Shown here: piece after piece, positions 1-54,522 of the stretch
Position numbering within the stretch: position 1 is the first letter of the stretch
How the letters are laid out: the number at the start of each line of letters is the position of its first letter
Sequence record: MZ189261.1
Reading direction: 5' to 3' (one strand)
Length of the DNA stretch: 64,000 nt
Source of the DNA: Escherichia phage S143_2
Translations under genes and position numbers: made by a program
The notes under the pieces: model-generated
What the model was told of the DNA's origin: nothing
Databases searched by the model: none
What the model saw: the letters and a program-made list of their open reading frames with translations, nothing else

Positions 1-202
1 AAGTTCCTGCGTCCGAAAGAGCTTCTTCATAGTACCCATTAATTTCTTTAAGAGTCCTACGTTTACCACCAGGACCATCAACAGTAATTTTCCATTTACC
101 TGTAGAAGTGCGGCTCGGTGGCTCAACTTGTTCAATCCAAATATAACCACCTTCAACGCGTTGGTTGGCTGATTCTGCAATAAATTCTTTATACGTTTTC
201 AT
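1..202 (-). CDS. internal-protein-like capsid-targeted protein, 3' end outside window
   Basis: ATG at 202; translation MKTYKEFIAESANQRVEGG... matches the T4 IP N-terminal capsid-targeting sequence (MKTYQEFIAE); runs off window edge; absent from ORF track because incomplete. Confidence 0.5.
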   Translation of the reverse strand, partial: MKTYKEFIAESANQRVEGGYIWIEQVEPPSRTSTGKWKITVDGPGGKRRTLKEINGYYEEALSDAGT

Positions 203-266: not shown

Positions 267-527
267 TTAAGCTTTACCGCCAGAAATAATTCCGAAGTTG
301 TTAAAATCGTATCCAATATCGTCAACATCTACTTTAGGGCTTGCTACAACATAAGCAATTTCACTACGTTTTGCATAGGTGTTGATTTCTTTACCATCGC
401 CACCTAAGAAAAAATACCCATTACGTTTTAATGAGCCAAAGTCTTCCGCATCACCAATGAAAGCTTTAACTTTAAATTTGGGGCTTTTGGCATCTGCTTC
501 AGAGATAAATTCTTGGTACATTTTCAT
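267..527 (-). CDS. internal-protein-like capsid-targeted protein (86 aa)
   Basis: N-terminus MKMYQEFISEA resembles T4 IP capsid-targeting sequence with L/I-x-E cleavage motif for gp21 protease. Confidence 0.55.
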   Translation of the reverse strand: MKMYQEFISEADAKSPKFKVKAFIGDAEDFGSLKRNGYFFLGGDGKEINTYAKRSEIAYVVASPKVDVDDIGYDFNNFGIISGGKA

Positions 528-1005: not shown

Positions 1006-1287
1006 CTATTTTTCTGAAGCGCCTGAAATATATTTTTCAAGACGTTGTTTCATCAGCGAGCCGTTCTTAGCGATTTCTTCCGGTTTATCGCACATACGCA
1101 ACAAGGCTTCAAGCTTAACGATATCGCTGGTACGTTCAAATTTGCGAGTATCTATCTTACTAGCAAGTTCAGAAATACGTGCTAATAGACTTTCAGCTTC
1201 AACCAAAGCTGCACCTAGCTTAGTTGCAAATGTGTCAGTAGCTTCGTTAAGAATAGATTCTGATAAAAATTCACTATATGTTTTCAT
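1006..1287 (-). CDS. internal-protein-like capsid-targeted protein (93 aa)
   Basis: Starts [11 protein letters not shown] at internal ATG 1287; ATGA stop/start overlap with e. Confidence 0.55.
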
Positions 1288-6254: not shown

Positions 6255-6628
6255 CTTATTTCCTTAACGAATTCCATAGCTTCTTCATATTCATACTTTT
6301 TAACAGCTTCATCATACTGAGCTTGGGCTTTTGCGCACTGAACTTTCCATTCTCTTAATCGGGCTCTGTGATGACGGCCTTGGTGCCAATATCCTGCCCA
6401 ATTAATAGGCATTAATAAAAACGGTACAATAAGTGGTGCGACGAACATTAATGAAAACGCTGCATCAGACGATATAACTTTATTGGAATCTAAAACAGCT
6501 CCTATAATCATAAAGATTAAAAACGCTAAAGCTAAAATAGGGCCAAATAGTACTTCATTTGGGATTAATTTACGCTTGTATTCATACGCCCAGGGCTTAC
6601 TTGGCATGTATAGGGTTGGCTTTGACAT
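6233..6628 (-). CDS. small membrane protein (about 131 aa)
   Basis: Start trimmed to ATG 6628 (track start was TTG); TM segments LFGPILALAFLIFMIIGAVL and AFSLMFVAPLIVPFLL; C-terminal EFVKEIRCK. Confidence 0.55.
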   Translation of the reverse strand: MSKPTLYMPSKPWAYEYKRKLIPNEVLFGPILALAFLIFMIIGAVLDSNKVISSDAAFSLMFVAPLIVPFLLMPINWAGYWHQGRHHRARLREWKVQCAKAQAQYDEAVKKYEYEEAMEFVKEIRCKSLNS

Positions 6629-7193
6629 ATTCTCTACATTCCATAATAAATTGCTCAAGGATTAAATTGTTAGTGAAATTAGGACTAACAACCATGGTTT
6701 CATAAAGCGCATCAATAGCACTTAAAGCATCAACTCTTTTAAGCAAAGGCTTGCCTTCATACATAGTTTCAGAATCGACGATTAAAGTGAAGTAGTATTT
6801 TTTATTATTGACCAGAACTTCTGTATCAATATAAAACATGTTAGACCTTAAAAGCTTGTCTCTAAAGCCTATGTAATCATCTGAACGTTCACTGATATAG
6901 TCCCATTCAGTGTTTAAACAACAAACAGACCACGTAGGAGCAACGAAATCAGTGAATCTAATATCATGGTCTGCAACTAGTTTAGCAATAGCTCCGATAT
7001 CATGAATCATAATACCTGGGGCTAATAAAGATTTTCGGTTATTTGCATATTCAGTTGTCTCATAAGAAGACGACCAGTACCATTTACGTCCAGTTGCAAC
7101 ATATCGTAATGAATCAACTAAAGACGTAGGTGGATTTACCTTATCTCGGAACTCTTCGAACATTGAGTCAATATCATTATTTTGGTTTCGCAT
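6597..7193 (-). CDS. hypothetical protein (about 198 aa)
   Basis: Start trimmed to ATG 7193 with AAGGAG SD; contains EQFIMECR near C-terminus. Confidence 0.55.
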   Translation of the reverse strand: MRNQNNDIDSMFEEFRDKVNPPTSLVDSLRYVATGRKWYWSSSYETTEYANNRKSLLAPGIMIHDIGAIAKLVADHDIRFTDFVAPTWSVCCLNTEWDYISERSDDYIGFRDKLLRSNMFYIDTEVLVNNKKYYFTLIVDSETMYEGKPLLKRVDALSAIDALYETMVVSPNFTNNLILEQFIMECREYVKANPIHAK

Positions 7194-8386: not shown

Positions 8387-8412
8387 ATCCTTGGTGCTTG
8401 TACATCATTATT

Positions 8413-8718
8413 TTATTTTTTCCAACTTAACAACTTGTAGTGTCCTTCATTCATACGTGGTTTATCCCAAGAAATACTAATATACGATTCACTGTCAATA
8501 GAAGTCGCCGGGTTTTTCTCTACCGTAAGACCTTCACTTTCCAGCCATTCAATAGTATTTGCGCATAAATCTGAAGAACACCTCATCGGAAACCGGCAAG
8601 ATTTTTCACCTTTAGCTGCAGTGTTATACATCTTTTCTAAAATACGCTTTTGCACGTTTTTAAAAATAGTTTCAGCAGATTCTTCAGATTTTTTATTCAG
8701 TTCGGTATAAAGACTCAT
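8413..8718 (-). CDS. hypothetical protein (101 aa)
   Basis: ORF with SD GAGGAAAA. Confidence 0.5.
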   Translation of the reverse strand: MSLYTELNKKSEESAETIFKNVQKRILEKMYNTAAKGEKSCRFPMRCSSDLCANTIEWLESEGLTVEKNPATSIDSESYISISWDKPRMNEGHYKLLSWKK

Positions 8719-8827
8719 AACATTTTCCTCATGTTTTTATAGGTCTATAGTAACACATCTAGGGAAGAAGTAAACAACTTTTTCAGTAAGTTATAGACCC
8801 CCTAATGGGGACCGAAGTCCCCATTCT

Positions 8828-9454
8828 TTACTTACGAGTTTTTGCATACTGAGCAGCGTCAGCAGCCAAACGACCTGCCTGACGAAGTTTTTCTTTAATC
8901 GCATCGTGAAGTGGTTGAGTATACTTCAAACCTTCGATAGTCAAATAAAGACGATAAAGGTCTGGGGTGTCAAGGTTGTTGATATGTTGGCCATTACGAA
9001 GAATATTGAATTCACGAACGAGTGAAGATGTATCAGATTCAATATCACGAACAAGCGAAGATAGTTGTTTATATTTTTTTTCCAGGCTAGAAGTATCAAA
9101 CTTAAGAGCAGGAGCTTTAGGAGTTGCTTTTACTTCCGGCTTAGGCTCAGGTTTTGCTACTGCTTTAGGGGTCGCAGGTTTAGGAGTGGTAGGAGCAGGT
9201 TTCACTTTAGGCGAACCCGATTTAGCAGAAACACCACCACTAACAATATCTTTGAATGCTTTAGAAGCTCTGTAATATTCTTTTTGGCTGGAAGTGTCGA
9301 TACCGTACATGGCTTGAACGTTTTTGAAAAACTCTGTACTAGTTTTTGTACCAGAAATAGCATCGTAAGCAGCTTGCCATTTCTCTTTTGTCATACGTAC
9401 ACCGGCTTCGGTGATTACTTCCGTTTCGGCTAAAAATTCATTAAAAGTATACAT
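8828..9454 (-). CDS. internal-protein-like capsid-targeted protein (208 aa), Pro/Lys-rich central region
   Basis: N-terminus MYTFNEFLAETE resembles the IP targeting sequence; late promoter TATAAATA 36 nt upstream. Confidence 0.5.
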   Translation of the reverse strand: MYTFNEFLAETEVITEAGVRMTKEKWQAAYDAISGTKTSTEFFKNVQAMYGIDTSSQKEYYRASKAFKDIVSGGVSAKSGSPKVKPAPTTPKPATPKAVAKPEPKPEVKATPKAPALKFDTSSLEKKYKQLSSLVRDIESDTSSLVREFNILRNGQHINNLDTPDLYRLYLTIEGLKYTQPLHDAIKEKLRQAGRLAADAAQYAKTRK

Positions 9455-9489
9455 TGATGGTCCTTAGAAAGTAGGTTTATTGTTTACTA

Positions 9490-9497
9490 TATTTATA
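9490..9497 (-). promoter_or_regulatory. T4-type late promoter TATAAATA
   Basis: Exact TATAAATA on minus strand upstream of the 8828..9454 start. Confidence 0.6.
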
Positions 9498-9498
9498 C

Positions 9499-9529
9499 AA
9501 AAAAGCCCCAACCTTTCGGAAGGGGCTAT
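9499..9529 (-). terminator. rho-independent terminator
   Basis: Minus strand AGCCCCTTCCGAAAGGTTGGGGCT followed by TTTTTTG. Confidence 0.7.
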
Positions 9530-9829
9530 ATACCTTGTCGGGGTTCCACCTACTAAGGCAAGTGTTTGTACGAAACGCCGGGGTTCGAACCCGGTTATTA
9601 AGCAGTTGACGCTACTCAATATTTTTAAAAGGCCATATCTCGACCATATCCGAACGTTCCGTCAAAAACGCTACTCGGCTTACGGCAAAGATATTTCCTC
9701 GAATCGATAATTCGGTGCGCCGTTTCTGCTGTGGTGTAAGGGGATATTAACAAATCGTAAAGATTTATTAAGACCAGTCCTTACTCAGGGAACATCAGTC
9801 CGACGACTTACCGGTAGCGACCCGGCTTC

Positions 9830-10174
9830 TTATTTTGGCATATCATCAATTTGCTCTCGACGCCGACGCCATAGATTAATCGCTTCATTAACACATTCGG
9901 CGTTTGGTATATGACGGCAATAATATAATGATTCGCGTTTCTGGAACCGATGTTGCAATGGGATTTCGTTTAAAAGGTCTTTACGGTCAAAGTATTCAAA
10001 ACTAGTTAACCCGGAACGGTTTTTAATGAACTTCCAATGACCGAATTCATTTTGAACATAGATGTAATCTGCGTGTTGGTATAACAAATTAATCAATCGG
10101 TCTGAAATAACTGTATCATGTTCGTTAAAATAAAACGTTAAATCATGAACTACTAAGTAAACATTACCTTTCAT
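9830..10174 (-). CDS. hypothetical protein (114 aa)
   Basis: Start trimmed to ATG 10174 with GAGGAAAA SD; the longer track ORF would overlap tRNA-Arg. Confidence 0.55.
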   Translation of the reverse strand: MKGNVYLVVHDLTFYFNEHDTVISDRLINLLYQHADYIYVQNEFGHWKFIKNRSGLTSFEYFDRKDLLNEIPLQHRFQKRESLYYCRHIPNAECVNEAINLWRRRREQIDDMPK

Positions 10175-10192
10175 ATTTTCCTCACTTAAAGT

Positions 10193-10269
<77 letters not shown>

Positions 10270-10273
10270 TATT

Positions 10274-10348
10274 TGGCGGACGTGATAGGATTCGAACCTA
10301 TAACCAATCGCTTAACAGGCGATCGCTCTGCCATTGAGCTACACATCC
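10274..10348 (-). tRNA. tRNA-Asn (anticodon GUU), CCA encoded
   Basis: Acceptor GGATGTG/CACGTCC, anticodon stem ATCGC/GCGAT, loop CTGTTAA, T-arm ATAGG TTCGAAT CCTAT. Confidence 0.8.
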
Positions 10349-10352
10349 AAAT

Positions 10353-10439
10353 TGGTGGGGAGTGATGGAGTCGAACCACCCGAGTCGCAATGACAATGGA
10401 TTTACAGTCCACACCGCTACCTCTACGGGATAACTCCCC
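10353..10439 (-). tRNA. tRNA-Tyr (anticodon GUA), long variable arm, CCA encoded
   Basis: Acceptor GGGGAGT/ACTCCCC, anticodon loop CTGTAAA, T-loop TTCGACT. Confidence 0.75.
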
Positions 10440-10451
10440 TAATTCATAATT

Positions 10452-10526
10452 TGGTGGCCCTGGGTGGAATTGAACCACCATCTGGCGATTATGAGTCGCT
10501 TGCTTGAACCTTCCAGCTACAGGGCC
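10452..10526 (-). tRNA. tRNA with anticodon CAU (Ile lysidine-type by T4 synteny, or Met)
   Basis: Acceptor GGCCCTG/CAGGGCC, anticodon loop CTCATAA, T-arm GGTGG TTCAATT CCACC. Confidence 0.75.
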
Positions 10527-10527
10527 T

Positions 10528-10603
10528 TGGTGCTGATTGACGGAATCGAACCGCCGACCTTCTCATTACAAGTGAGTTGCTCTACCTACTGAGCTAAATC
10601 AGC
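10528..10603 (-). tRNA. tRNA-Thr (anticodon UGU), CCA encoded
   Basis: Acceptor GCTGATT/AATCAGC, D-arm GCTC AGTAGGTA GAGC, anticodon loop CTTGTAA. Confidence 0.8.
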
Positions 10604-10608
10604 AAAAC

Positions 10609-10698
10609 TGGCGGAGGCGATAGGATTTGAACCTATGAGTCGCCGGAGCGACTGCCGGTTTTCAAGACCGGTGCATTAAACCACTCTGCCACGCCTCC
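10609..10698 (-). tRNA. tRNA-Ser (anticodon UGA), long variable arm, CCA encoded
   Basis: Acceptor GGAGGCG/CGCCTCC, anticodon stem CCGGT/ACCGG, loop CTTGAAA. Confidence 0.8.
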
Positions 10699-10700
10699 AG

Positions 10701-10774
10701 TCTCCATACAAGGATTTGAACCTTGGGCCTCCTGATCCCAAATCAGGCGCTCTACCAAACTGAGCTACACGGAG
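10701..10774 (-). tRNA. tRNA-Pro (anticodon UGG), no encoded CCA
   Basis: Acceptor CTCCGTG/TATGGAG, anticodon stem CCTGA/TCAGG, loop TTTGGGA; 2-nt spacer to tRNA-Ser. Confidence 0.8.
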
Positions 10775-10784
10775 TAAATTAAAT

Positions 10785-10858
<74 letters not shown>

Positions 10859-10863
10859 AAATT

Positions 10864-10950
10864 TGGTGCGAGAAGTGGGACTCGAACCCACAAGGAAATC
10901 ATTCCGCAGCATTTTAAGTGCTGTGCCTTTACCAATTTGGCCATTCTCGC
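10864..10950 (-). tRNA. tRNA-Leu (anticodon UAA), long variable arm, CCA encoded
   Basis: Acceptor GCGAGAA/TTCTCGC, anticodon loop CTTAAAA, T-arm GTGGG TTCGAGT CCCAC. Confidence 0.8.
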
Positions 10951-10951
10951 G

Positions 10952-11024
10952 CTGGGAATAAAGGACTCGAACCTTTGCATCCTGGAATCAAAATCCAGTG
11001 CCTTACCAACTTGGCTAATTCCCA
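10952..11024 (-). tRNA. tRNA-Gln (anticodon UUG), no encoded CCA
   Basis: Acceptor TGGGAAT/ATTCCCA (U1:A72), anticodon stem CTGGA/TCCAG, loop TTTTGAT; 1-nt spacer to tRNA-Leu. Confidence 0.8.
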
Positions 11025-12048: not shown

Positions 12049-12357
12049 CTATTTTATTCCGCGTGATGCAATCGTATTCTGCCGTTTAACGCCAGTTTGT
12101 TTAAAGTTATGATTGTCAAGTTGATCGGTACGAGCAACTCCGAATGATGATTTAATCTTAGCTTTAGATCCTTTAGTTATAGAAATAAACATCTCGGGAG
12201 CCCCTTTCTTAAAGTCCGAAGCAATTACTTCAACACCGTTCTTAGCAAGTGACCTCAGAATTGCTTCCGCGTACTCATCATCAAGACCCGCTTGAGTATG
12301 AATAACGAATGTCTTTGGTGCAGCCGCTTCATTGATAAATTCTTTATAGGTTTTCAT
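12049..12357 (-). CDS. internal-protein-like capsid-targeted protein (102 aa)
   Basis: N-terminus MKTYKEFINEA. Confidence 0.6.
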   Translation of the reverse strand: MKTYKEFINEAAAPKTFVIHTQAGLDDEYAEAILRSLAKNGVEVIASDFKKGAPEMFISITKGSKAKIKSSFGVARTDQLDNHNFKQTGVKRQNTIASRGIK

Positions 12358-12417: not shown

Positions 12418-12690
12418 TCATTTTAAATAAATTGCGTATTTTTTATAACCCGCCGACTCATGACGAAGACCCTTATCATTAGCAAAACGCTCAATGTTGT
12501 TAATTTGATTCTGGTCAAGTTCAGAGATGTCAAACACGAAAAAGTTACGTTTGTTACCAACTGTTACATAGTCAGTTAAATCAATATCATATAGGTAATT
12601 GATGTCAGCAATCAAAGTCTTGACAGCTTTGCTAATTTTTACTTTTTCGTTAAAAGTAGCTTCATTGATAAATTCTTTATAGGTTTTCAT
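12418..12690 (-). CDS. internal-protein-like capsid-targeted protein (90 aa)
   Basis: N-terminus MKTYKEFINEA; in the position of T4 ipI next to 57B. Confidence 0.6.
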   Translation of the reverse strand: MKTYKEFINEATFNEKVKISKAVKTLIADINYLYDIDLTDYVTVGNKRNFFVFDISELDQNQINNIERFANDKGLRHESAGYKKYAIYLK

Positions 12691-40148: not shown

Positions 40149-41720
40149 ATGAAATTTAATATCTTAAGTTTGTTTGCTCCATGGGCAAAAATGGACGAAC
40201 GTGATTACAAAGACCAAGAAAAAGAAAATTTAGAATCTATCACCACACCAAAATTAGACGACGGCGCTAAAGAATACGAAGTATCTGAAAATGAAGCACA
40301 GCAAACATATAATGCTATGTTTCAGAGAATGTTCGGTAGTCAAGAACCAGGGCTCAAATCAACCCGTGAATTAATCGATACGTATCGAAATTTGATGACG
40401 AACTATGAAGTGGATAACGCGGTCTCTGAAATAGTTTCCGATGCTATCGTGTATGAAGATGATACAGAAGTCGTTTCTATAAATTTAGACAACACAAAAT
40501 TTAGTCCAAATATCAAATCAATGATGTTGGATGAATTTAATGAAGTGTTAAATCATTTATCTTTCCAACGTAAAGGTTCAGATCATTTTAGACGTTGGTA
40601 TGTGGATTCTCGAATTTTCTTCCATAAAATTATTGACCCTAAACGCCCTAAAGAAGGTATTAAAGAGCTTCGTCGTTTAGACCCACGTCAAGTTCAATAT
40701 GTCCGTGAAGTTATTACAACCACTGAAGCCGGTGTTAAAATAGTCAAGGGTTATAAAGAATATTTCATTTATGACACGTCACACGAATCTTATGCTTGTG
40801 ATGGTCGCATATATGAAGCTGGCACAAAAATAAAAATCCCTAAAGCCGCGATTGTTTACGCCCATTCTGGTTTAGTTGATTGTTGTGGTAAAAATATCAT
40901 CGGTTATTTGCATCGGGCTATTAAGCCAGCGAACCAATTAAAACTTCTTGAAGATGCTGTCGTAATTTATCGTATTACTCGTGCTCCTGATCGTCGTGTA
41001 TGGTACGTTGATACAGGTAATATGCCTTCAAGAAAAGCAGCAGAACATATGCAACATGTTATGAATACGATGAAAAACCGTATTGCATATGATGCTACTA
41101 CAGGCAAGATTAAAAACCAGCAGCATATTATGTCGATGACCGAAGATTATTGGTTACAACGACGTGATGGTAAAGCAGTAACAGAAGTTGACACATTACC
41201 GGGTGCAGATAATACCGGAAATATGGAAGATGTACGTTGGTTCCGTAATGCGCTTTATATGGCTTTACGTATTCCTATTACCCGTATTCCAAGTGACCAA
41301 GGTGGTATACAGTTTGATGCTGGTACTTCTATTACACGAGATGAATTGTCATTTGGTAAATTTATTCGTGAGCTGCAACATAAATTTGAAGAGATATTCC
41401 TAGACCCGCTTAAAACTAATTTAATTCTTAAAGGAATTATTACAGAAGATGAGTGGAATGATGAAATAAATAATATTAAGATAAAATTTCATCGGGATAG
41501 TTATTTCTCGGAATTAAAGGATGCTGAGATTCTGGAGCGTCGCATTAATATGCTTCAGATGGCCGAACCATTTATTGGTAAATATATTTCTCACAGAACA
41601 GCTATGAAAGATATTCTTCAGATGTCTGACGAGGAAATTGAACAAGAGGCTAAGCAAATTGAAGAAGAGTCGAAAGAGGCTCGTTTCCAAGACCCCGACC
41701 AAGAACAAGAGGATTTTTAA
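40149..41720 (+). CDS. 20: gp20 portal vertex protein
   Basis: 523 aa (T4 524 aa). Confidence 0.93.
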
Positions 41721-41956
41721 TGGACGATTTAATTCAAGCTATTAAATCAAACGACCTCGTTGCTACTCGAAAGTTTTTTGAAAGTGCAATGGCAGAAAAA
41801 ACGGTTCGTTTGATTGAAGCACGCAAAGCAGAAATCGCGTCTCAATTTTTGATTGAAGGCGAAGAACCTGAAGAAGAAAAGAAAGCTAAAGCTTCGGAAG
41901 ACGACGCTGATGAAGGCGATGACGACGAAGACGAAGATGATGAGGACGATGAATAA
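41720..41956 (+). CDS. 67: gp67 prohead core protein
   Basis: 78 aa with acidic C-terminus [11 protein letters not shown]. Confidence 0.85.
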
Positions 41957-42381
41957 TGTATCTTATCCCTGAATCTTATGAATTGGTACTCGAAAATGTC
42001 GAAGCACTTATTCCTGAAGCACAGGGCCGAATCGATGCATTGTCTTCTGCTCTCGATATTGACGATATAAATACTATTATCGAGAACATGCTTGAAACTG
42101 AAACGGATTTAGCTGTTGCAATGGCTTCCATTATTAATGAAGAACAGTTAAATGAGTTTATTGTTAAACATGTTTCTTCTCGTGGTGAAGTCACCCGCAC
42201 TAAAGACCGTAAAACTCGTGAACGTAACGCGTTCCAAACAACCGGTCTTTCTAAAGCAAAACGTAGACAAATCGCTCGTAAGGTCGTTAAAGCTAAAAAA
42301 GCTAACCCTTCAGGCCAAGTTAAAGGCTTGCGTAAGCGTAAAAAAGCTCTTAAACGTCGTAAAGCATTAGGATTAAGCTAA
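41956..42381 (+). CDS. 68: gp68 prohead core protein
   Basis: 141 aa as T4 gp68. Confidence 0.85.
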
Positions 42382-43028
42382 TGAATAAACCCGAGTTACT
42401 TATTGAAACTTGGGGTCAACCCGGTGAGATTATTGATGGCGTTCCAATGTTGGAATCTCATGATGGAAAAGATTCTGGCTTAAAACCAGGGCTTTATATA
42501 GAAGGTATTTTTCTTCAGGCAGAGGTTGTTAACCGAAATAAACGTTTATATCCTAAACGCGTTTTGGAAAAAGCAGTAAGTGACTATATTAAAGAACAAG
42601 TCGCAACCAAACAAGCCCTTGGAGAATTAAACCATCCACCTCGTGCAAATGTTGACCCCATGCAAGCCGCTATCATTATTGAAGATATGTGGTGGAAAGG
42701 AAACGATGTATATGGACGTGCTAGAATTATTGAAGGCGACCATGGTCCCGGCGATAAATTAGCTGCTAATATACGAGCTGGTTGGATTCCAGGTGTTTCC
42801 TCTCGTGGTCTTGGTTCTTTAACCGACACCAATAAAGGGTACCGTATCGTGAACGAAGGATTTAAATTAACCGTCGGCGTAGATGCCGTATGGGGACCTT
42901 CCGCTCCAGATGCTTGGGTTACTCCTAAACAAATATCAGAATCAGAATCAGAAAATTCGGTGGAAACCGCCAAAAACAGTGCTGATGAAGCATTTAAAGC
43001 TCTCGCAGAGAGTTTAAAAGCATTATAA
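42381..43028 (+). CDS. 21: gp21 prohead core protease
   Basis: 215 aa (T4 212 aa). Confidence 0.9.
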   Translation: MNKPELLIETWGQPGEIIDGVPMLESHDGKDSGLKPGLYIEGIFLQAEVVNRNKRLYPKRVLEKAVSDYIKEQVATKQALGELNHPPRANVDPMQAAIIIEDMWWKGNDVYGRARIIEGDHGPGDKLAANIRAGWIPGVSSRGLGSLTDTNKGYRIVNEGFKLTVGVDAVWGPSAPDAWVTPKQISESESENSVETAKNSADEAFKALAESLKAL

Positions 43029-43031
43029 ATA
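43024..43031 (+). promoter_or_regulatory. late promoter TATAAATA upstream of gene 22
   Basis: Exact octamer. Confidence 0.65.
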
Positions 43032-43061
43032 ATAATGTAATCTAAACCACAGGACACTAAA

Positions 43062-43874
43062 ATGATCAAAGAACAACTTTTGAAAGAAGCTCAGAACATC
43101 GAGACTTCAGTTGCTCTTAATAGTGTTTTCGAATCAGTAGAACTGTCTCCGGACGTTAAAGCTAATTTCAGCACTGTATTCGAAGCCACCGTTAAGCAGG
43201 AAGCAGTCAAACTGGCTGAATCTCATATCAAAGCCATCGCCGAAAAGGCCGAAGAAGAAGTTGAAAAGGCTAAAGAAGATGCTGAAGAGAAAGCTGATAA
43301 AAAATTGGCTGAACAAGCTTCTAAATTCCTAGACCATCTTGCAAAAGAATGGCTCGCAGAAAACCAAATCGCAGTTGATAAAGGCATTAAAGCTGATTTG
43401 TTCGAATCCATGCTTGGTGGTCTGAAAGAACTGTTTGTTGAACATAACGTTGTTGTTCCAGAAGAATCTGTAGATGTTGTAGCAGAAATGGAAGAAGAGC
43501 TGGCCGAACATAAAGAAGAAACCGCTCGTTTGTTCGAAGAAGTTACCAAACGTGATGCATATATCAATTACGTTCAGCGTGAAACCGCTATTAATGAAAG
43601 CGTAAAAGACCTGACTGAATCTCAGAAAGAAAAAGTTATTGGCCTGGTTGAAGGTATGGATTATTCTGACGCATTTGGTACTAAGTTAACTGCTATTGTA
43701 GAAATGGTTAAAGGTTCTACTAAAGAAGAAGCCGCTATCACCGAAAGTATAAATACAGTTGACAATGACGCTGCCGGTCTTAATTTTGTTGCCGAAGCAG
43801 TTGACACTACCACAACTCAGGTAGAACAGAATTCTAATGTAAGTTTATATGCGAAAGTCGCATCTCGTTTCTAA
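43062..43874 (+). CDS. 22: gp22 prohead core scaffold
   Basis: 270 aa acidic helical protein (T4 269 aa). Confidence 0.9.
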   Translation: MIKEQLLKEAQNIETSVALNSVFESVELSPDVKANFSTVFEATVKQEAVKLAESHIKAIAEKAEEEVEKAKEDAEEKADKKLAEQASKFLDHLAKEWLAENQIAVDKGIKADLFESMLGGLKELFVEHNVVVPEESVDVVAEMEEELAEHKEETARLFEEVTKRDAYINYVQRETAINESVKDLTESQKEKVIGLVEGMDYSDAFGTKLTAIVEMVKGSTKEEAAITESINTVDNDAAGLNFVAEAVDTTTTQVEQNSNVSLYAKVASRF

Positions 43875-43891
43875 TTTAAAGGTTAACACAA

Positions 43892-45460
43892 ATGACTACT
43901 ATCAAAACTAAAGCTCAGCTCGTAGACAAATGGAAAGAACTGCTGGAAGGCGAAGGCCTGCCGGAAATCGCTAATAGCAAGCAGGCTATTATCGCTAAAA
44001 TCTTCGAAAACCAGGAAAAAGATTTCGAAGTATCCCCTGAATATAAAGACGAGAAAATCGCTCAGGCATTTGGTTCTTTCTTGACCGAAGCTGAAATTGG
44101 TGGTGACCACGGTTATAATGCTCAGAACATCGCAGCAGGTCAAACCTCTGGTGCAGTAACCCAGATTGGGCCAGCAGTTATGGGTATGGTTCGTCGTGCT
44201 ATTCCTAATCTGATCGCTTTTGATATTTGTGGTGTTCAGCCTATGAACAGCCCGACCGGTCAGGTATTTGCTCTCCGTGCAGTATATGGTAAAGACCCTA
44301 TCGCTGCTGGCGCTAAAGAAGCTTTCCATCCGATGTATGCCCCGGACGCGATGTTCTCTGGTCAGGGTGCTGCTAAGAAATTCCCAGCTCTGGCTGCTGG
44401 CACACAAACCACAGCAGGTGATATCTATACTCACTTCTTCCAGGACACTGGTACTGTGTATTTGCAGGCTTCTGTTCAAGTAACAATTGATGCTGGCGCT
44501 ACCGATGCAACTAAATTAGATGCTGAAATTAAGAAACAAATGGAAGCCGGTGCACTGGTAGAAATCGCTGAAGGTATGGCCACTTCTATCGCTGAACTTC
44601 AGGAAGGCTTCAATGGTTCTACCGACAACCCGTGGAACGAAATGGGCTTCCGTATCGACAAACAAGTTATTGAAGCTAAATCTCGTCAGCTGAAAGCAGC
44701 TTACTCCATCGAATTGGCACAAGACCTCCGTGCAGTACACGGTATGGATGCTGATGCTGAACTGAGTGGTATTCTTGCTACTGAAATTATGCTGGAAATC
44801 AACCGTGAAGTTGTTGACTGGATTAACTACTCCGCTCAGGTTGGTAAATCTGGTATGACTAATATCGTTGGTTCTAAAGCTGGTGTATTTGACTTCCAGG
44901 ACCCGATTGATATCCGTGGTGCTCGTTGGGCCGGTGAAAGCTTTAAAGCTCTGTTGTTCCAGATTGATAAAGAAGCAGTTGAAATTGCTCGTCAAACCGG
45001 TCGTGGTGAAGGTAACTTCATTATCGCTTCCCGTAACGTAGTTAACGTACTGGCTTCAGTTGATACTGGTATTTCTTATGCTGCACAGGGTCTGGCTTCT
45101 GGTTTTAATACCGACACTACTAAGTCTGTATTTGCCGGTGTACTTGGTGGTAAATACCGCGTATACATCGACCAGTATGCTAAACAGGATTACTTCACCG
45201 TTGGTTACAAAGGCGCTAACGAAATGGATGCAGGTATTTACTATGCTCCTTACGTTGCACTTACCCCACTGCGTGGTTCCGATCCTAAGAACTTCCAGCC
45301 GGTAATGGGCTTTAAAACTCGTTACGGTATCGGTGTTAACCCGTTTGCTGAAAGTTCCCTGCAGGCTCCAGGTGCTCGCATCCAGTCCGGTATGCCGTCT
45401 ATCCTGAACAGCCTTGGTAAGAACGCTTACTTTAGACGCGTCTACGTTAAAGGAATTTAA
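43892..45460 (+). CDS. 23: gp23 major capsid protein
   Basis: 522 aa (T4 521 aa). Confidence 0.95.
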   Translation: MTTIKTKAQLVDKWKELLEGEGLPEIANSKQAIIAKIFENQEKDFEVSPEYKDEKIAQAFGSFLTEAEIGGDHGYNAQNIAAGQTSGAVTQIGPAVMGMVRRAIPNLIAFDICGVQPMNSPTGQVFALRAVYGKDPIAAGAKEAFHPMYAPDAMFSGQGAAKKFPALAAGTQTTAGDIYTHFFQDTGTVYLQASVQVTIDAGATDATKLDAEIKKQMEAGALVEIAEGMATSIAELQEGFNGSTDNPWNEMGFRIDKQVIEAKSRQLKAAYSIELAQDLRAVHGMDADAELSGILATEIMLEINREVVDWINYSAQVGKSGMTNIVGSKAGVFDFQDPIDIRGARWAGESFKALLFQIDKEAVEIARQTGRGEGNFIIASRNVVNVLASVDTGISYAAQGLASGFNTDTTKSVFAGVLGGKYRVYIDQYAKQDYFTVGYKGANEMDAGIYYAPYVALTPLRGSDPKNFQPVMGFKTRYGIGVNPFAESSLQAPGARIQSGMPSILNSLGKNAYFRRVYVKGI

Positions 45461-54510: not shown

Positions 54511-54522
54511 TATTTATAAATA
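54511..54522. promoter_or_regulatory. overlapping divergent late promoters in TATTTATAAATA (minus for gene 26, plus for gene 51)
   Basis: TATAAATA readable on both strands, 4-nt offset. Confidence 0.65.

Follow-up and report, generated by a model that had tools for sequence, protein, structure and literature searches.

A predicted internal head protein precursor with a capsid targeting-like leader and a late promoter motif in the tRNA region of a Mosigvirus

Of all phage proteins, internal proteins are the first that meet the host. IPI and IPIII, the two with a known role, set the host range by countering defences, and IPI* comprises 76 of the 95 residues. The capsid targeting sequence (CTS) of T4, MKTYQEFIAE, is removed by a single cut of the prohead protease (10.1101/2021.01.19.427310), and internal proteins are described as having in common 'only a conserved CTS' (PMC3012670). 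IPI blocks GmrSD (PMC3012670), and infection of ECOR17 requires IPIII (10.1101/2022.04.14.488369).

We analysed a stretch of 64,000 nucleotides from Escherichia phage S143_2 (MZ189261.1), in the following called the window, which is DNA of a Mosigvirus, i.e. an RB69-like T4-type phage. Positions 8400-10300 are 95-98% identical to Mosigvirus genomes, for example vB_Eco_F27, moskry, G2469 and ST0 (megablast), and an ORF of ST0 encodes a protein 100% identical to the 208-aa protein described here. The locus corresponds to the 'e / tRNA / ipI' hyperplastic region of T4. Its gene order is denV, lysozyme e, nudE, e.3-e.6, frd.3, the 208-aa ORF, rnaC and rnaD, and ten tRNAs; beyond the tRNAs follow tRNA.2-4 and internal-protein genes, then 57B/57A, 1, 3, 2 and 4. 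An earlier note on this DNA had proposed the 208-aa ORF, and the reading frame was indeed found with an ATG start, beginning MYTFNEFLAETE. The coordinates of all features are collected in Table 1.

Table 1. Features of the 208-aa gene and of its surroundings. Positions refer to the window, except for the JS98 hairpins; ↓ marks a cut.
Feature	Position	Strand	Remarks
CDS, 208 aa, phrog_2280	8828..9454	-	ATG start; predicted internal head protein precursor
CTS-like leader, residues 1-16	9407..9454	-	MYTFNEFLAETEVITE; predicted gp21 sites LAE10↓ and ITE16↓A
N-terminal peptide of the uncleaved protein			MYTFNEFLAETEVITEAGVR
N-terminal three-helix domain, residues 17-75	9230..9406	-	helices 23-31, 39-50, 57-72; pLDDT ~82-86
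Disordered Pro/Lys-rich linker, residues 76-117	9104..9229	-	
C-terminal three-helix domain, residues 118-208	8831..9103	-	most conserved part (LRNGQHINNLDTPDLYRLYLTIE.LKYTQP)
Shine-Dalgarno AAGGA	9461..9465	-	6 nt 5' of ATG
T4-type late promoter motif TATAAATA	9490..9497	-	exact; 35 nt 5' of ATG
Intrinsic terminator	9499..9527	-	hairpin 9504-9527 and U-tract; closes tRNA/rnaD/rnaC unit
UUCG-loop hairpin	8804..8825	-	directly 3' of stop codon; without U-tract on this strand
rnaC (species 1) homolog	~9569-9707	-	T4 stable RNA; ~93% identity to T4
rnaD (species 2) homolog	~9714-9833	-	T4 stable RNA; ~93% identity to T4
Ten-tRNA cluster	10193-11024	-	Arg, Asn, Tyr, Met, Thr, Ser, Pro, Gly, Leu, Gln
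Other CTS-led ORFs	2..202, 267..527, 1006..1287, 12049..12357, 12418..12690	-	
JS98 (L009) hairpin copies, either side of orf136	466-540 and 1144-1164		

The N-terminus of the window protein reads MYTFNEFLAE↓TEVITE↓AGV, with the core M-x-T-[FY]-x-E-F-[LI]-x-E. The translated T4 genes give MKTYQEFIAE↓ASVV for IPIII, whose precursor is annotated from AA -10 to 183 in X04567, MKTYQEFIAE↓ARVG for IPII and MKTFKEFTSTTTPVSTITE↓ATL for IPI. The leader differs from the canonical CTS at position 2 (Y for K) and position 4 (F for Y). Closest in form is the IPI leader, as MKTFKEF...TITE↓A compares with MYTFNEF...VITE↓A, both being longer and carrying an ITE↓A site (predicted here). All phrog_2280 members, which come from Mosig-, Dhaka-, Kanagawa-, Winkler- and Karamvirus, a Yersinia phage and metagenomic sequences, have the leader and start with M-x-x-[FY]-x-[ED]-[FI]; the Dhakavirus relatives even begin MKTYNEFLNES(I/V)L(S/N)EAG. 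These homolog leaders are the strongest evidence for the predicted CTS identity. Residue E16 with its preceding [LI]-x is invariant in a nine-sequence alignment of the closer relatives, and some more distant members, for instance CBH8 and HMGUkp2, have a shorter leader with the first cleavage site only.

A position matrix, for which no training sequences were used but the three internal proteins of T4 and five further CTS-led ORFs of the window, was applied to the 507 Met starts followed by at least 50 open codons. The N-terminus of the 208-aa protein scored 16.5 bits (background mean -16.6, sd 7.5) and ranked sixth, directly below the five internal-protein ORFs of the training set; the next other start reached 2.9 bits. 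The resemblance to a targeting sequence that the earlier note had seen is thus borne out by the homologs, by the form shared with IPI and by the matrix, and judged from its sequence the N-terminus is a genuine relative of the CTS. Profile-profile similarity to every known internal protein is limited to residues 1 to 11-32, which fits the internal-protein class, whose members share only the CTS. Homology of the body to T4 IPI, IPII and IPIII or to the five internal proteins of the window was considered and rejected, as the similarity stops at the leader.

With T4 IPIII the protein has several properties in common. Both have a CTS of the MKTYQEFIAE type, which is cut after Glu by gp21 in the case of IPIII; both are basic and of comparable precursor length (193 aa for IPIII); and both are encoded by non-core, patchily distributed accessory genes of the e/tRNA hyperplastic region. 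However, similarity is not detectable past about 25 residues (hhalign probability 23-26%), and IPIII is devoid of a Pro/Lys linker. Simple substitution for IPIII was rejected by a complementary-distribution test, because vB_EQ1 and Entb_45 have both genes. The body of IPI, a small single domain of 76 aa when mature, is unrelated, and IPI-locus proteins are hypervariable whereas the C-domain of phrog_2280 is well conserved.

Including the 208-aa gene, six CTS-led ORFs are found in the window. A loose regular expression matched the start of five ORFs, each of them on the minus strand, and the sixth (MKMYQEFISEA) was taken from the ORF listing at the window start. The leaders of the five other ORFs follow MKTY[KQS]EF[IL]xE[AS], one being MKMYQEF, and four of the five are labelled 'internal head protein' by PHROGs. 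These five proteins (phrog_2667, 7673, 3499 and 3966) have the leader in common with the 208-aa protein and are encoded on the same strand of the same hyperplastic region. They are, in contrast, single-domain proteins of 67+ to 102 aa with sigma70-like promoters, while the 208-aa protein has double their length, two domains and an exact late promoter motif upstream.

The difference in promoters extends to T4. All five window genes as well as T4 ipI, ipII and ipIII have sigma70-like promoters of the form GTTTAC...TAnnAT, and TATAAATA is absent within 120-130 nt 5' of these eight genes (130 nt for ipIII). Only the 208-aa gene among the six CTS-led genes has a late promoter within 120 nt upstream. 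On account of these sigma70-like promoters and the missing TATAAATA, the 208-aa gene is predicted to be regulated differently from the canonical internal-protein genes.

The exact motif TATAAATA occurs 21 times in the window compared to 7.8 +/- 3.2 times in shuffled sequences, and none of 100 shuffles reached 21. T4 late genes are recognised by TATAAATA about 25-35 nt 5' of the start codon and by transcription that requires gp55/gp33; motif and spacing at the 208-aa gene fit this rule. Exact copies are located 27-30 nt 5' of gp18, gp20, gp22 and gp24 (sheath, portal, scaffold and vertex) in the window. In JS98 and PG7 the motif is likewise exact, 28 and 27 nt from the ATG. Other relatives have the motif at the same position with a single mismatch, always in the first base, namely CATAAATA in HMGUkp2, GATAAATA in CBH8, Kosakonia 305 and Q7622, and AATAAATA in RB69. 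The promoter motif and the leader are kept across at least six genera. The late promoter postulated by the earlier note is therefore well founded as a motif, and its geometry is that of bona fide late genes.

The same note had assigned an upstream terminator to the gene. A hairpin, AGCCCCuuCC-GAAA-GGuuGGGGCU, is present and followed by a T-run to 9499, with a centroid energy of -16 kcal/mol. It was not called by a simple terminator scanner, due to the internal U.U mismatches, but was accepted because it folds, is conserved in T4, RB69 and JS98 and shows a compensatory change in one base pair. The approximately 290 nt upstream of it (about 9545-9835) show about 93% identity to T4 rnaD and rnaC. 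An Rfam scan of 8700-10300 returned tRNA-Arg only, rnaC and rnaD having no Rfam family, and the two RNAs were recognised through alignment to T4. In T4 the same hairpin follows rnaC (AGCCCCGACCGAAAGGTTGGGGCTTTTT), with neither TATAAATA nor a phrog_2280 gene beyond. Since T4 carries the hairpin without the gene, the terminator is, as far as its conservation tells, the end of the tRNA/rnaD/rnaC unit and not strictly the gene's own, so that only its presence, not its ownership, stands. It is predicted to insulate the 208-aa gene from upstream transcription.

In JS98 the hairpin occurs twice, after an rnaD/rnaC remnant and directly before TATAAATA-orf135, and in the copy on the orf135 side a C:G pair of the window is replaced by G:C, a compensatory change. 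The doubled hairpin suggests that orf136 was inserted through recombination at the hairpin.

The UUCG hairpin downstream of the gene has a GGGG/CCCC stem; the 56-nt segment folds with -18.8 kcal/mol (z = -2.6). It is followed by a GTTTAC-17-TACTAT promoter (cassette 8757-8825, minus strand), which serves the next gene at 8413-8718. Hairpin and promoter together are similar to shuffling cassettes named PeSL (promoter-early stem-loop), which were described for T4-type hyperplastic regions (Arbiol et al. 2010). The hairpin is probably a 3' stabiliser or attenuator and at the same time the stem-loop half of a PeSL-like cassette.

The low-complexity, Pro/Lys-rich centre expected from the earlier note was found as PKVKPAPTTPKPATPKAVAKPEPKPEVKATPK at residues 82-113. 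The linker contains 11 P, 9 K+R and 2 D+E and has a pI of 10.3. Among the homologs its length and sequence vary, while its composition is kept. In composition it resembles the proline-rich spacer of TonB and the Lys/Pro/Ala-rich tails of histone-H1-like DNA-binding proteins; this likeness is compositional and not due to homology. In an AlphaFold2 model from a 9-sequence alignment (mean pLDDT 70.5) the leader is disordered; it is followed by a helical domain at residues 23-72, a linker with pLDDT below 50 at 74-112, and a second domain of three longer helices at 122-206 with pLDDT 83-88. The conserved C-domain includes the loop NGQHINNL(D/E)TPDLY. If the precursor is cut after E16, the mature form would have 192 aa, 21.2 kDa and a pI of 9.79; a cut after E10 would leave 198 aa. 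A basic mature protein is also what is seen for the T4 internal proteins.

Neither of the two domains could be placed in a known fold or family. Pfam yielded no match for the 208-aa protein, and NCBIfam only sub-threshold low-complexity matches to the proline regions of PspC and TonB (residues 80-121 against the TonB spacer, 16.8 bits with a cut-off of 315). In a sequence-profile search of the PDB, no hit had an E value below 0.8. The best Foldseek hits against the PDB (E = 2) were generic helical hairpins such as the MORC2 coiled coil and EsxA, and a fold search of BFVD returned family members only.

The proteins form PHROG 2280, listed with 'unknown function'. A tblastn search with the window protein gave 138 phage records, and no Tequatrovirus was among the matches listed. 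Among 1.84 billion representatives, an exhaustive HMMER search identified only 13 proteins; all have one architecture, and no distant relative with an annotation was recovered. The family is widespread in the five genera named above, with a sister allele in many Tequatrovirus: an intact 187-aa sister form (RB14ORF136) is found in RB14 and many other members of that genus. Within Mosigvirus the slot is polymorphic. The RB69 allele is divergent (MKTYAEFLTEA..., phrog_2280 E = 6e-37) and is split by a frameshift at 9429-9991 of NC_004928 (L013) into ORF149c and ORF148c, which reflects either a pseudogene or a sequencing error. The T4 slot holds no phrog_2280 gene. In the records examined, family members go by 'hypothetical protein' or an equivalent uncharacterised label; the one exception, an 'isopenicillin N synthase-like dioxygenase' in the sister-allele cluster, is evidently spurious.

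Several members have exchanged domains. Q7622 (L012, 1201-1812), P0023 and likewise P0026 keep the leader, the N-domain and the linker but have an unrelated C-domain, and P0025 and P0027 keep the C-domain together with a different N-domain. Three unrelated C-domains and two N-domains are thus combined with the same leader and Pro/Lys linker. It is conceivable, though rather doubtful, that phrog_2280 is a modular family of injected cargo with a constant CTS, usually the same N-domain and Pro/Lys spacer, and exchangeable C-terminal helical effectors. These would make up a polymorphic effector system of T4-type phages against different host defences and, through strictly late expression, be present as pre-loaded cargo only.

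The predicted late-only expression, which resembles that of gp22, gp67 and gp68 and not that of the internal-protein genes with their early promoters, would also suit a component of the prohead scaffolding core. Such a gp67- or gp68-like protein would use the same leader, serve in assembly, leave only fragments or a small residue in the mature head and not be an ejected effector. The helical structure and a C-domain conserved across genera are in agreement with that, and gp68 ('prohead core protein') was detected by mass spectrometry together with the family member discussed below. The gene is however not universal, as T4 lacks it, the RB69 allele is divergent and frameshifted, and domains are swapped. 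Such a pattern is what an accessory protein would show and does not fit a core assembly factor. Moreover, the protein has only three [LI]xE motifs, two of them within the leader, so that extensive degradation is not predicted. We consider a core component unlikely.

Experimental data exist for one member of the family. In the only publication found to mention any of these proteins, CsCl-purified virions of vB_Eco_mar005P1 were analysed by nanoLC-ESI-MS/MS and five proteins were detected (Michniewski et al. 2019, PMC6563131): tail sheath, prohead core protein, major capsid protein, an Alt-like ADP-ribosyltransferase and the 'hypothetical protein' MAR005P1_00015. The latter is encoded in LR027390.1 by a CDS at 6284..6910 on the minus strand, which is flanked by the tRNA-Arg-proximal ORF and the e.x genes; the record labels it 'confirmed structural protein by MS'. 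It is identical to the window protein in 204 of 208 residues (98%). Virion association, which the earlier note had expected to be checked by mass spectrometry, is hence experimentally supported for a near-identical ortholog in another phage, and its place in so short a list suggests that the protein is abundant in virions.

One could object that a late protein foreign to the virion was carried over, and that TATAAATA and the CTS-like start are coincidental. The study detected very few proteins and did not quantify them. Nevertheless, to be among just five, next to gp23, gp18, gp68 and Alt, argues for abundance over trace contamination, and promoter motif and leader are conserved as described above, which makes carry-over hardly credible. 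A place elsewhere in the virion, for instance as a decoration of the capsid or an accessory protein of neck or tail, whose N-terminus would be a shared ancestral leader without targeting role, agrees with the mass spectrometry insofar as it gives virion association and not location. Pro/Lys-rich spacers are also known from extended envelope-spanning or surface proteins, and the weak sub-threshold matches to TonB and PspC point the same way. The leader is, however, the one feature constant in the family, even where N- or C-domains were replaced, and the conserved [LI]xE↓[A/S] motif fits the specificity of gp21. PHROGs, Pfam and the fold searches gave no match to known decoration, neck or tail proteins, and we regard such a location as very unlikely.

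The best explanation, to which we assign a probability of roughly three in four, is that the gene is expressed late and encodes a basic internal head protein, which is targeted by its CTS, processed by gp21 and ejected together with the DNA. The head-assembly genes which this requires are at hand: gp20, gp67, gp68, gp21, gp22 and gp23 are located at 40149-45460 (gp21 to gp23 at 42381-45460, or 41720-45460 when GP67 is included), gp21 being identified as Peptidase_S77 (E = 2.9e-107) and gp22 as T4_CASP, so that the cognate prohead protease and scaffolding core are encoded in the window. We infer the following course of events. The terminator of the tRNA/rnaD/rnaC unit would stop early and middle read-through into the gene, and transcription would start from the TATAAATA late promoter during head building. 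The N-terminal CTS (MYTFNEFLAE...) would guide the precursor into the scaffolding core that gp22 forms in the prohead. The protease gp21 would then cut off the leader; the most likely site is Glu16 (ITE↓A, a form shared with T4 IPI), and Glu10 (LAE↓T) may be an additional one. The product of ~192 aa and ~21 kDa (pI ~9.8) would remain in the head with the DNA and be ejected into the host alongside it.

The Lys-rich proline linker probably lies along the DNA, and the two small helical domains may be the functional modules. Drawing on the cases of IPI and IPIII, we favour with low confidence a function in which the protein protects the incoming genome, or helps it to become established, against a host defence. 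Several points speak against the internal-protein explanation, namely the two deviations of the leader from the canonical CTS, the different promoters of the canonical genes, the lack of a fold or family match that would give a function, and the strong conservation of the C-domain across genera, which is unlike the fast diversification of anti-restriction proteins of the IPI type.

The protein is predicted to be an unannotated addition to the well-known class of T4 internal proteins, in which the two-domain-plus-linker layout and the strictly late regulation that the promoter suggests would be unusual; the general understanding of internal proteins is unchanged by it. For phrog_2280, named 'hypothetical' yet apparently abundant in Mosigvirus virions, the label of a CTS-led internal protein would correct the annotation in several hundred phage genomes, many of them therapeutic candidates. 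It would also provide a second natural leader variant for the engineering of T4-head cargo and nominates a testable host-range determinant.

Some further observations concern the surroundings of the gene and the late promoters. The tRNA set of the window is bigger than and unlike that of close relatives, as Arg and Met are the sole tRNAs given for this stretch in mar005P1, G2469 and RB69; the matching stretch of T4 contains eight tRNAs. Relatives annotate a spurious 42-aa CDS within rnaC/rnaD (window ORF 9625..9753; G2469_00144). An ORF of unknown function, phrog_3355 (9830-10174, minus strand), separates tRNA-Arg from rnaD, which are an adjacent pair in T4. Its listed TTG start overlaps tRNA-Arg, and an internal ATG (MKGNVYLVV...) is probably the real start. 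Finally, two exact copies of TATAAATA overlap on opposite strands at 54511-54522 (TATTTATAAATA), each 17-18 nt from a divergent ORF, and look like a back-to-back pair of late promoters, probably at the divergence of gene 26 and gene 51.
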